Assembly (NCBI RefSeq): GCF_003334355.1
Contig: NZ_QOWP01000046.1
Direction: 5' to 3' (one strand)
DNA length: 22,950 nucleotides
Source of the DNA: Escherichia coli
Lineage (GTDB): Bacteria > Pseudomonadota > Gammaproteobacteria > Enterobacterales > Enterobacteriaceae
The notes below the pieces were generated by a model. It was not told where the DNA came from, did no database searches, and was given only the letters and a program-made list of their open reading frames with translations. The stretch's first letter is position 1. Each line of letters starts with the position of its first letter. Shown here piece by piece: positions 476-3,372 of this stretch. The translations under genes and the position numbers were made by a program.

Positions 476-1000
476 TTATTGTTTAACCCATAATAGTTCA
501 TTGACATTGAATCCCAACTTTTGAGCGGTACGCACATAGTCTGCTTTTACATTATCTGGAATAGTTTGGGTCCTTGCCAGAATCCATAGGTATTCTCTGT
601 TCGGACCACTGACAAGAGCATACTTATACTCATCATCCAGTTTGATTACATTATAGCCACCATAGAAGGGGCCAAAAAACGAAACTTTCAACGCTGCAGT
701 TTTAGTATCTCCAGTAAAGTATGCTTTACCTTCGCTCTCGCTCCATTTGTTTTTCGTTGGATCGTATCCACGGTTAAGTACGCGAATCCCTCCGTCGTTC
801 CGTTTTTCATAAGTAGCGCTGACCTGTTCCAGACCACGTTCGAACCAGTTCTCGAGGCGAGCTATTTCATACCATTTTCCGAGGTAGCGGTTGGCGTCAA
901 AATTTGTAATCGGCTGCACACCTTTAGGTGGTGTCGGGGCCTTACATGCTATAAGAGTGAAAGAGAGTGCAATGCCAGTCAACACAGGCCATAACTTCAT
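476..1000 (-). CDS. Bacterial lipocalin (Blc-like) outer-membrane lipoprotein
   Basis: 174-aa ORF with a signal peptide and lipobox (…FTLIAC), the lipocalin motif GKWYEIAR, and family-typical blocks (KVSFFGPFYGGYNVI, EYLWILART). ATG at 1000 with an AGGA Shine-Dalgarno upstream. Confidence 0.85.
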   Translation of the reverse strand: MKLWPVLTGIALSFTLIACKAPTPPKGVQPITNFDANRYLGKWYEIARLENWFERGLEQVSATYEKRNDGGIRVLNRGYDPTKNKWSESEGKAYFTGDTKTAALKVSFFGPFYGGYNVIKLDDEYKYALVSGPNREYLWILARTQTIPDNVKADYVRTAQKLGFNVNELLWVKQ

Positions 1001-1192
1001 AATAAATCCTGTACTTTTGATAGTTGAGAGTAAGTATGAAAGATAGATGAGTACGACCGATCACTTAAAGAACTTTCCTACTATATTAGGAATAGTCAAT
1101 AACAGAAAAATTGTCAGTGATGAAGCCAGAAAGGCAATTTAGTCCGTGCACTACAAAGTTTATGTGTTAATGAATTAGTCAAGGGGGAGGAA

Positions 1193-2152
1193 ATGATAAA
1201 AAAACCTGTGATTGGGATCAGCGGTTGTTTGGGCGGTTCTGCTGTTCGTTTTGATGGTGGTCACAAAAGAGATGACTTTTTAATGGACAAATTAGTGGAA
1301 TGGGTAACATTCAGACCAGTATGTCCGGAAATGGCTATAGGGCTGCCAGTTCCGCGTCCTGCTCTACGACTTGTGCGCTCGAAGCAAGGAAATATACGGA
1401 TGTGTTTCAGCCACGACCAGAATGAGGATGTGACAGAGAGAATGACAGAGTTTAGTCGTTCTTATATGGACAAATTAAAGGATGTATCGGGGTTTGTGGT
1501 TTGTGCTAAATCTCCCAGCTGTGGCATGGAGCGCGTGCGTGTCTATGATGAAAATGGTAATCGAGGTCGTAAAGATGGAGTGGGACTATTTACGAGCACT
1601 TTGATGGAAAAGTTTTCCTGGCTACCGGTTGAAGAGGATGGGCGATTACATGATCCAGTGCTTCGTGAGAATTTTATTGAAAGAGTTTTTGCTTTGCATG
1701 AGCTCAATCACCTTTACAAGGAGAAATTATCAAGAAGAGAGTTATTAGCTTTTCATAGTCGTTATAAGCTTCAGTTGTTGGCGCATAGCCAGGCAGGCTA
1801 TAAAGATATGGGACCATTTGTGGCTGCAATACACGAGTGGGCGGACCTTGAATCATACTTTGAGGTGTATCGTGATAATCTGATGGCGATTCTCAGAAAA
1901 CCAGCATCACGTAAAAATCACACGAATGTGCTGATGCATATACAGGGGTATTTTAGTAATTACTTAAGTACACGCCAGCGTAAAGAGTTGAGCGAGGTTA
2001 TACTTAACTATCGCTTTGGCACATTGCCTCTTCTTGCGCCGTTGACTCTGCTGAAGCATTATCTGGGTGAGTATCCTAATGATTACTTGCTTACACAGAA
2101 TTACTTCGATCCCTATCCGGAAGAACTGGCTCTAAGACTGATGGTGAATTAA
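1193..2152 (+). CDS. DUF523 (TudS-like thiouracil desulfidase domain) fused to DUF1722 (YbgA-like)
   Basis: 319-aa ORF with a strong RBS (AAGGGGGAGG) ahead of ATG 1193. N-terminal cysteines in GISGCLGG, VCPEM and VVCAKSPSCG are positioned like TudS Fe-S cluster ligands; the C-terminal half resembles YbgA/DUF1722. Domain assignment is from memory, not a search. Confidence 0.7.
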   Translation: MIKKPVIGISGCLGGSAVRFDGGHKRDDFLMDKLVEWVTFRPVCPEMAIGLPVPRPALRLVRSKQGNIRMCFSHDQNEDVTERMTEFSRSYMDKLKDVSGFVVCAKSPSCGMERVRVYDENGNRGRKDGVGLFTSTLMEKFSWLPVEEDGRLHDPVLRENFIERVFALHELNHLYKEKLSRRELLAFHSRYKLQLLAHSQAGYKDMGPFVAAIHEWADLESYFEVYRDNLMAILRKPASRKNHTNVLMHIQGYFSNYLSTRQRKELSEVILNYRFGTLPLLAPLTLLKHYLGEYPNDYLLTQNYFDPYPEELALRLMVN

Positions 2153-2558
2153 CTGTATGCGATATCATCTGAAAGTGATGAGTTCCTGTATGCAGGATAT
2201 TTACAATCGTAAAAACTACGCTATGATGCTCATAGTGTCAGTTTTTATAAAAATCCTGTTCACGCTAAAGAAAACATTGAGATGCAATTTAATGTTGGTA
2301 AACATACCAGCCCCAAAAGATTTTATTCAATCTGTTTTTATATGAAGATATTTCAAGTGAATATTAAGAGCATATAATATTATTATTGCACGCAGCTATT
2401 ATAATATAACAGATTAGTTTAATGATTTGTTTTTTGTGAGTTAAACACATGGTTTTATAGTTGTGATGCAATGAGATTTTCCTTATTGTTGAACTGGCGA
2501 ATATTGATTTTCCACCTATACTTACCTGGTGTAACCCCAATGATATCAGGTGGATAAT

Positions 2559-3272
2559 ATGCCATACATATGTTCTATCATTTTGGTGTTGAACTCGTTT
2601 GGTGTCCGAATTGGTAAAGAAGATATTTTGTTTAAAAAAGGAAATGCTGTTCTCATTGAATACAATTTAAAAGATCTTTTTTCGTCAAATACAGATCATC
2701 TAATGATCGTAGATGTTGAGGAGAAAACAGTTAATGATTTCTTTAAAAACTACACACTCTCACCTTTTTCTGTAAGAAGGTTTTATCCGTCATACTTGAT
2801 AGTAGAATGTGAAGATTTTTCATTGTTAAAGAACTTGGTTGCATGCTTGAATTGTGATAGCAAAACCGTGGATGTAGTTAGAAATCAAATATCACTTGCA
2901 TGTCTTGCTGTCTTATCTTCAGAGAAAATAGTGCAAAGTTTTTTGTTCGGAAGTCTTAATAGCTTAGGTTGTAAAGTTAAGGCTATTATTCACTCGGATA
3001 TCTCAGCGTCATGGAGACTTTGTGATATATCTTCAAGATTATATATGAGCGAGAGTTTGTTAAAAAGAAAATTAAAAGACGAAGGATTATCGTTTAGTAA
3101 ATTAATTCTTGAAGAACGAATGATGATGGCGCAAAGATTATTGATCTACAGTAACCATACTGTCGGCAAGGTGGCGGGAATATGCGGGTATGACAATGCA
3201 TCATATTTTGTAAGTGTTTTTAGAGGATATTTTGGTGTGCCTCCGCACCAATATTTATCAAGATTTTCTTAG
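2559..3272 (+). CDS. AraC-family transcriptional regulator, AppY/EnvY/AdiY-like
   Basis: C-terminal AraC helix-turn-helix signature (SESLLKRKLKDEGLSFSKL … CGYDNASYFVSVFRGYFGVPPHQY). ATG 2559 sits 5 nt after AGGTGG; the track ORF starts at GTG 2550. The gene and its upstream region are markedly AT-rich. Confidence 0.8.
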   Translation: MPYICSIILVLNSFGVRIGKEDILFKKGNAVLIEYNLKDLFSSNTDHLMIVDVEEKTVNDFFKNYTLSPFSVRRFYPSYLIVECEDFSLLKNLVACLNCDSKTVDVVRNQISLACLAVLSSEKIVQSFLFGSLNSLGCKVKAIIHSDISASWRLCDISSRLYMSESLLKRKLKDEGLSFSKLILEERMMMAQRLLIYSNHTVGKVAGICGYDNASYFVSVFRGYFGVPPHQYLSRFS

Positions 3273-3340
3273 AAGATATGATGTGATGGCATTTTATAAA
3301 GTTATTTTTTGAAGTGTAAGATTATACGATATTTTTAGCT

Positions 3341-3372
3341 ACGCCAGAATAATTGCTGGCGTTTTTCTTTTT
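3341..3372 (+). terminator. Rho-independent terminator after the AraC-family gene
   Basis: Stem ACGCCAG (3341-3347) / CTGGCGT (3356-3362) followed by TTTTCTTTTT. Confidence 0.5.

Follow-up and report, generated by a model that had tools for sequence, protein, structure and literature searches.

Which genes does a prophage keep in the slot between its antiterminator gene Q and its lysis genes, and do they serve the phage or the bacterium that carries it? The question is raised by a 22,950-nucleotide stretch of Escherichia coli DNA (contig NZ_QOWP01000046.1 of assembly GCF_003334355.1; hereafter the window), the late half of a lambdoid prophage of the Qin type. Three intact open reading frames lie in the slot at 476–3372, where the original prediction, made from the sequence alone, had placed them: a blc-like lipocalin gene on the minus strand and, on the plus strand, a gene for a TudS/YbgA-like protein and one for an AppY-class regulator. 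NCBIfam and Pfam models and alignments bear out all three identities. The region is probably, though by no means certainly, a composite lysogenic-conversion (moron) cassette tied to one 125-aa Q allele, between a tR′-like terminator and the holin gene. It is a common conversion cassette built from known gene families and not a new kind of system. It would comprise two units: a captured, divergently transcribed pair of the lipocalin gene (blc2) and a desulfidase gene (rudS), concerned with ultraviolet A (UVA) and lipid stress, and an AT-rich gene for a PatE-like regulator with a promoter-like element, a long 5′ untranslated region (5′ UTR) and a terminator of its own.

A predicted tRNA desulfidase in the slot

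The middle gene, rudS (1193–2152, plus strand), encodes a 319-aa fusion of a TudS domain (DUF523; PF04463, residues 7–149, E = 1.2e-39) and a DUF1722 domain (PF08349, residues 192–309, E = 9.4e-40), a predicted [4Fe-4S] tRNA 4-thiouridine (s4U) desulfidase. Cys12, Cys44, Cys110, Glu46 and Ser107/Ser109 are all present; they align with the TudS structure 6Z92 and agree in position with the cluster cysteines and the catalytic glutamate and serines listed for RudS_vir. That protein is gp66 (H3V29_gp66) of Escherichia phage 1H12, which was synthesized and assayed as a tRNA s4U desulfidase in the study that defined RudS (Jamontas et al. 2024, PMC11417400), and the window RudS is 92 per cent identical to it. 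The two are different alleles with the same 319-aa length, the same Cys12/Cys44/Cys110 ligands and the same order of neighbors. Every RudS variant tested in that study reduced s4U in E. coli tRNA (PMC11417400), and the residues of the window RudS predict that it, too, removes s4U from tRNA.

The likeness to phage 1H12 extends over the whole slot. Its gene order (Q, lipocalin, RudS, AraC-like gene, holin) is that of the window, and its lipocalin, RudS and regulator are 96, 92 and 76 per cent identical to the window proteins. The RudS paper does not discuss the genes that neighbor RudS_vir (PMC11417400). The trio had been put forward as a combination not yet described as a module, and this stands insofar as no paper on the trio, or on a lipocalin–RudS partnership as a unit, was found, the RudS paper being the only one to surface; it does not stand for the middle gene, whose orthologue in the same trio had already been assayed. 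A search for literature linking LitR with a lipocalin likewise returned nothing relevant.

If active as predicted, the iron–sulfur enzyme would convert tRNA s4U to uridine, lowering s4U and blunting the translation arrest that UVA triggers. Overexpression of the Pseudomonas protein RudS_KT shortened the UVA growth delay from ∼105 to ∼60 min (PMC11417400). The chromosome of E. coli holds a relative of the C-terminal DUF1722 half of the window RudS, namely YbgA (b0707; 49 per cent identity), encoded in an operon with phr. YbgA consists of DUF1722 alone, the catalytic TudS domain being missing, and shows no activity on tRNA (PMC11417400). Since E. coli keeps only this inactive remnant, the prophage would restore RudS to the ∼21 per cent of strains that carry it.

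One further E. coli record shows part of the same arrangement. In a Rosetta2(DE3) assembly (NZ_CP083274.1, BL21 lineage) the same Q and lipocalin genes are present, and a rudS truncated to 147 bp stands at the record origin, where it adjoins what appear to be the pRARE tRNA genes. This junction seems unreliable and may have arisen in assembly, and nothing is concluded from it about rudS in that strain. The published UVA assay was done in BL21(DE3).

A conserved pair of chromosomal origin

The lipocalin gene and rudS are a conserved pair of chromosomal origin. Species-representative genomes yielded 41 RudS loci, all in Enterobacterales, which were scanned with the phage proteins. At 22 of the 41 loci a lipocalin gene lies no more than 7 kb from rudS and, like that of the phage, on the other strand; its product is 68–80 per cent identical to the phage lipocalin. 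The order lipocalin, MerR-family (MlrA-like) regulator, rudS is found at 18 of these 22, while at three (Citrobacter sedlakii, Citrobacter sp. JGM124 and Huaxiibacter) the lipocalin gene and rudS are adjacent without a MerR gene, separated by 187 bp in C. sedlakii. The module that includes MerR is present in Enterobacter, Leclercia, Lelliottia, Serratia rubidaea and others, and its proteins have the same lengths as those of the phage (174 and 319 aa), with identities of 68–80 per cent for the lipocalin and 66–75 per cent for RudS (75 and 74 per cent in S. rubidaea). The phage pair differs from it in that the MerR gene is absent, the pair lies inside a phage late operon, and an AraC-family gene has been added. 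Given the co-location at 22 of 41 chromosomal loci and the loss of MerR, the phage pair is best read as a MerR-less copy of a conserved module. A search for a close donor of the pair found none, the best chromosomal loci, C. sedlakii included, reaching ∼70 per cent DNA identity.

The chromosomal pair often has a lipid-modification operon beside it, with SDR, amine oxidase, DUF1365, CFA-synthase-like, DUF2878 and DUF3833 genes. At 15 of the 41 loci rudS is the last gene of a MerR-headed operon, for which a DUF3833 gene directly upstream served as marker. The individual genes of this operon were identified in Citrobacter braakii and Klebsiella grimontii, and its products are SnoaL, SDR, amine oxidase, DUF1365, CFA-synthase-like, DUF2878, a 174-aa protein and DUF3833. 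The lipocalin gene, too, is present at the locus of the MerR-headed operon in Klebsiella sp. BIGb0407 at least. The RudS paper connects RudS with MerR/LitR light regulation (PMC11417400), and the gene neighborhood suggests a photo-oxidative and lipid theme for the pair.

The phage pair itself is divergently transcribed from a 192-bp control region (1001–1192, 34 per cent guanine plus cytosine, GC) that holds neither a MerR gene nor a recognizable MerR-type operator. No adjacent MerR-family gene, the mark of a MerR/LitR light module, was found in the window or in any phage copy. The region is 90–95 per cent conserved across three phage alleles. A remnant of a MerR operator or of a chromosomal promoter within it was considered and rejected, as alignment shows no such conservation. 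In Enterobacter, Leclercia, Huaxiibacter and Phytobacter a near-palindrome, ACTTGGACAAA...TTTGTGTAAGT, lies ∼30–70 nt upstream of chromosomal rudS; this sequence, which the phage copies lack, may be a MerR-type operator.

The lipocalin half of the pair, blc2 (476–1000, minus strand), encodes a 174-aa member of the bacterial lipocalin (Blc) family that scores 312.6 bits against the NCBIfam Blc model NF007786 (cut-off 267) and matches the solved E. coli Blc structure 3MBT at E = 8e-67. Read by eye, its signal peptide, MKLWPVLTGIALSFTLIAC-K, has the lipobox LIAC with Cys19 and lacks Asp at +2; Blc2 is thus a predicted outer-membrane lipoprotein. Its expected ligands are (lyso)phospholipids or fatty acids, and it may handle lipids of the outer membrane. 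The chromosomal Blc of E. coli K-12 (b4149) belongs to the same family with 59 per cent identity over 174 aa, lower than the 68–80 per cent of the RudS-linked lipocalins of other Enterobacterales, and its gene adjoins ampC and is unlinked to ybgA. In PHROGs the three cassette proteins fall into families 2809, 3275 and 1450, each of unknown function.

A lipoprotein signal that is predicted to direct Blc2 to the outer membrane also invites the thought of defence or superinfection exclusion, in which Blc2, in the manner of Cor or Llp, would mask a phage receptor, or RudS-altered tRNA would block incoming phages; exclusion genes are common in Q-to-lysis and other moron slots. The original prediction had proposed a test of phage resistance. 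A defence role gains no support from PADLOC-DB, in which none of the three proteins has a match at E ≤ 0.01, and the chromosomal orthologues stand beside MerR and lipid-modification genes in non-phage contexts, which fits a housekeeping stress role instead. We regard exclusion as very unlikely.

A regulator of separate origin

The third gene (2559–3272, plus strand, with an in-frame GTG upstream at 2550) encodes a 237-aa AraC/XylS-family regulator that full-length alignments place in the PatE/GadW/AppY/YdeO clade. It is 48 per cent identical over its full length to PatE (Z0321, prophage CP-933H/OI-8) of enterohaemorrhagic E. coli (EHEC) strain EDL933, with 65 per cent in the DNA-binding half and 34 per cent in the N-terminal half, and PatE is co-linear with it throughout and is likewise prophage-borne, AT-rich and cupin-less. 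Identities to a presumed PsrB, GadW, AppY and YdeO are 37, 33, 30 and 29 per cent. Near-identical homologues of the regulator have a double helix-turn-helix (PF12833 and PF00165). Its scores fall far under every NCBIfam equivalog cut-off (YdeO is best, at 112 bits against 348; GadX reaches 90 against 500), which makes it a clade member in its own right and not an orthologue of any of these regulators.

In origin the regulator is a unit separate from the blc/rudS pair. None of the 41 chromosomal RudS loci contains it, and homologues more than 75 per cent identical to it were found only in E. coli sequences. In mEp332 and ev099, relatives with 47 per cent identity are found by themselves behind the tail-fibre genes, and the genes for PatE and AppY likewise lie at the tail-fibre end of their prophages, whereas the window regulator sits after Q. 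The presumed PsrB gene shares the latter position, between a Q-like gene and lysis genes. PatE, PsrB and AppY activate acid-resistance genes of the GAD/hdeAB (gadE/hdeAB) type (PMC10877973; PMC10057817), and by analogy with these characterized relatives the likeliest targets of the cassette regulator, reached in trans, are stress genes of the host, for instance those of the acid-fitness island.

The gene presumed here to be PsrB (locus tag z2104) lies at 1,905,274–1,905,987 of EDL933; it encodes 237 aa and is found between a Q-like gene (DUF1133) and tRNA and lysis genes. PsrA was not located, the 1.625–1.675 Mb region of EDL933 (a prophage with espK/nleL) being without an AraC-family gene.

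Linkage, distribution and selection

Of 5,426 complete E. coli genomes, 1,116 contain the Q allele with its pR′/tR′ region (window 79–475), 1,135 contain blc and 1,136 (∼21 per cent) contain rudS, and the three largely agree in their identity bands. Near-equal counts and matching bands together indicate one linkage block, and this Q allele seems never to be paired with other cargo. The regulator was detected in 922 genomes with the window allele as query and in 699 with the 1H12 allele. These sets overlap because an intermediate regulator allele is matched by both queries, and their union is put by estimate, not by exact count, at ∼1,020–1,050 genomes, or ∼90 per cent or more of those with blc and rudS. 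At least 80 per cent of window 300–3500 occurs in one piece in 991 genomes. It had been held that occurrence of the three genes independently of each other would tell against the trio; the genes do occur apart elsewhere, but within E. coli they form a tight block with a single Q allele.

Viral sequences agree. Among 36 E. coli-type loci in IMG/VR, the order Q, blc, rudS, regulator, holin holds wherever the stored DNA reaches, with two exceptions (L076 and L081) in which the regulator gene is broken near its 5′ end, at window position ∼2578. One of the two has a 767-bp insertion, the size of insertion sequence (IS) IS1, together with a deletion that extends to window position 2891. IS3 or IS1 insertions are also found inside the cassette in other genomes.

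Three alleles from functional phages (the window type, IdasGreatGrand and 1H12) were compared for selection. The ratio of nonsynonymous to synonymous substitution rates (dN/dS) is 0.07–0.25 for each of the three genes, all of which are under purifying selection. Synonymous divergence (dS) of the regulator is higher, up to 0.57, and decoupled from that of blc and rudS, and a recombination break lies between the two regulator domains.

Such values are hard to square with a neutral cassette that is merely carried along by a successful Q allele. An inert hitch-hiker would explain why the cassette is found with one Q allele only, and some copies do have a regulator gene or a rudS that is broken by IS elements. 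However, with dN/dS this low at dS of up to 0.57, reading frames intact in ∼1,000 genomes and catalytic residues preserved, we give this explanation almost no weight.

The same linkage data bear on a more serious alternative, in which the three genes form one regulon. Here the MerR regulator would have been lost at capture and the AraC-like protein would now control the divergent promoters of blc and rudS, so that a light-responsive module would answer to whatever the AraC-like protein senses, such as stationary phase, acid or temperature. The frequency with which regulator and pair travel together in E. coli, the presence of the regulator in every sufficiently long IMG/VR locus but the two with IS-type breaks, the purifying selection on all three genes, and the absence from the phage copy of both the MerR gene and the palindrome found upstream of chromosomal rudS would all fit such a swap. 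However, the characterized members of the AraC clade all act on distant host genes, and close relatives of the regulator are solitary morons with no blc or rudS nearby. Regulator alleles range down to 76 per cent protein identity against 90–95 per cent for the blc/rudS intergenic region, with no sign of co-variation; base composition, too, indicates a separate origin. A regulator swap is therefore possible but rather improbable, and two units of separate origin remain the arrangement we favor.

The slot, its edges and its defective antiterminator

The cargo was originally assigned to the Q-to-lysis slot, and both flanks confirm the assignment. To the left are a C-terminal fragment of a Q-family antiterminator gene (81–320, plus strand; PHROG 79, anti-termination protein Q-like, E = 6e-26) and the tR′-like terminator, and to the right is an essD-like holin gene (3463–3678, plus strand; PHROG holin, RefSeq essD), the first of the lysis genes, followed by ydfR, lysozyme and Rz. 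The same slot is occupied in K-12 Qin by cspB/cspF, which the original prediction had named as cargo of other lambdoid prophages, and in EHEC prophages by tRNAs, TerB or an esterase (nanS-p). In Stx phages, stx is Q-to-lysis cargo. The cassette shares with such cargo its position after Q and before the holin gene, a moron-like layout and terminators of its own, and differs in gene content from cspB/cspF, the tRNAs and nanS-p. Two features by which morons are recognized are thus found here: variable cargo between the flanking genes of related phages, as the comparison with K-12 Qin and the EHEC prophages shows, and autonomous termination signals, in the form of hairpins with T-runs at 2213–2245 and 3341–3372.

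The Q gene of the window is a pseudogene. The uncut antiterminator is 125 aa long, and RefSeq marks the window copy as ‘missing N-terminus’. The truncation, which had gone unnoticed in the original prediction, is due to the end of an IS3-family (IS1203-like) insertion sequence at 1–78: other genomes match the window from base 79, and the annotation of strain PSS-12, which is 99.8 per cent identical across all 22,950 bases, identifies the element and puts the start codon of its transposase at about position 24 on the minus strand. The PSS-12 prophage occupies the ydfJ (Qin) locus and lacks its early region, so Q-dependent late transcription cannot arise there in cis. With Q broken in the window, only autonomous expression of the cassette is possible, and any benefit goes to the host.

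Beyond the lysis genes, at window 5081–7400, lies another AT-rich cargo block (36 per cent GC). It is headed by cspI, which is preceded by a cspA-type thermoregulator RNA (5297–5681, 114 bits), and continues with ynfQ, ynfR, ynfN, gnsB, ydfO and ynfO, as in K-12 Qin.

Does RudS serve the phage?

Temperate phages have acquired rudS more than once. Six viral contigs in IMG/VR (L098–L103) carry a solitary RudS, 72 per cent identical to that of the window, without a lipocalin or AraC gene; it is placed in the nin region, upstream of RusA and of a different Q (e.g. L099:5001–5960). The nin-region gene is a second, independent phage capture. In the same lineage the Q-to-lysis slot (L099:8824–10933) holds three low-GC minus-strand open reading frames, among them one for a 300-aa protein that appears ATP-grasp-like by eye and one for a 290-aa membrane protein; these are possibly defence cargo.

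Repeated capture might be expected if RudS served the phage directly. Lower s4U would limit UVA cross-linking, translation arrest and the stringent response, such that lysogens induced by sunlight could still produce late proteins and release progeny. Capture on at least two occasions (within the cassette, and alone in the nin region) is in keeping with this, as is the place of rudS, in sense just downstream of pR′/tR′, which would give strong transcription on induction. Loss of s4U does lessen the effect of UVA (PMC11417400). However, tRNA would need to be de-modified before irradiation if cross-links are to be prevented, and expression from a late promoter would then come too late. The cassette is also kept under purifying selection in defective prophages, with Q truncated and the early region deleted, which argues for benefit to the host, and no experiment links RudS to burst size. 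We consider a phage-serving role unlikely.

A bolder scheme would join this role to the replacement of MerR. RudS would be a phage-selected s4U eraser, captured repeatedly, that resets the UVA sensor of the host, and the PatE-like regulator would have taken the place of MerR and tied the module to gut and acid signals. We think this scheme no more probable than the phage-serving role. If it were true, lysogens in sunlight would avoid translation arrest and the stringent response, which would aid either prophage induction or lysogen survival, and lysogenic conversion would in this case work through the de-modification of tRNA.

Signals for expression and base composition

If the composite cassette benefits its host, its genes would have to be expressed in the lysogen from promoters of their own, while in prophages with an intact Q the late transcript from pR′ would read rudS and the regulator gene in sense and blc in antisense. 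A candidate pR′, TTGCTG-N17-TAACAT, can be read from the sequence at 333–361 (plus strand); it falls under the threshold of the promoter scanner, and its place directly after Q mirrors that of the lambdoid pR′. The tR′-like intrinsic terminator that follows (419–449, plus strand; 9-bp stem, T7 tail, −14.9 kcal/mol, z = −3.9) forms the left edge of the cargo and accompanies the Q allele in all 1,116 genomes counted above.

A conserved block after rudS (2200–2245, plus strand) combines a sigma-70-like promoter with an overlapping hairpin and T-run. The promoter-like element, TTTACA-N16-TATGAT at 2200–2227, matches 10 of 12 consensus positions, and its hexamers are invariant in the three alleles although the flanks diverge; the hairpin and T-run at 2213–2245 fold with −13.3 kcal/mol (z = −5.1). 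The block could be the promoter of the regulator, the terminator of rudS, or both, and a transcript that started at the 2200–2227 element would have a regulator 5′ UTR of ∼325 nt. Promoter-like matches overall are as frequent as chance would give (15, where 16.5 would be expected), and neither blc nor rudS has a clear one.

Within this leader a hairpin is predicted at 2495–2564 (plus strand), in which UCCACCU pairs with the Shine–Dalgarno sequence AGGUGGA and the AUG is covered. The consensus fold of the three alleles has 26 pairs, one of them compensatory, and the paired blocks are kept in the diverged 1H12 allele. Thermometer-type control is known for other AraC-family regulators, and the hairpin resembles it; it is a weak candidate for translational control of the regulator, as modeled here. 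Downstream of the regulator gene, where a terminator had been foreseen, a hairpin (3341–3362) followed by a T-run makes an intrinsic terminator at 3341–3372 (plus strand; −11.3 kcal/mol, z = −2.9), which is the right edge of the cargo. Rfam and tRNA scans returned no RNA genes in the island.

The island had been described as visibly more AT-rich than its flanks. This holds for the regulator gene (33.3 per cent GC) and for the 406-bp spacer between rudS and the regulator gene (31.0 per cent), but not for blc (43.8 per cent) or rudS (43.2 per cent), which come near to the Q fragment (47.1 per cent) and the lysis genes (47.5 per cent). The structural genes reach 57.0 per cent GC, and the whole left third of the window is lower. 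That the island is horizontally acquired cargo, as had been proposed alongside its composition, is nonetheless borne out.

Weighing the composite cassette

The composite reading joins a stress-related pair to a regulator that would act in trans, and from selection in defective prophages we infer a benefit to the lysogen. Several points nevertheless weigh against it. RudS_vir was the weakest of the assayed RudS proteins despite its good solubility, and the UVA phenotype is known only from overexpressed Pseudomonas RudS_KT (PMC11417400). The light-stress theme comes from gene neighborhood and from an inference in the RudS paper, and not from tests in Enterobacterales. An identity of 48 per cent to PatE, with 34 per cent in the N-terminal domain, leaves shared targets unassured. 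That regulator and pair are so nearly always linked could point to a single regulon and not to two independent units, and the promoter calls are consensus matches at chance level. Finally, no expression data from a lysogen were found for any of the three genes.

Implications

About one-fifth of sequenced E. coli carry a full-length prophage RudS. The study that defined the enzyme states that E. coli is without it (Jamontas et al. 2024, PMC11417400), a statement that fails for these strains, and it bases the difference in UVA response between E. coli and Enterobacter on that absence (PMC11417400). With prophage RudS in ∼21 per cent of complete genomes, the choice of strain could alter the results of s4U, UVA and stringent-response experiments. 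The association of a lipocalin with RudS, on chromosomes and in phages alike, suggests that the handling of outer-membrane lipids is tied to the photoprotection of tRNA. The cassette also enlarges the PatE/Psr/AppY group, whose prophage regulators feed into the stress networks of their host, by one widespread member.

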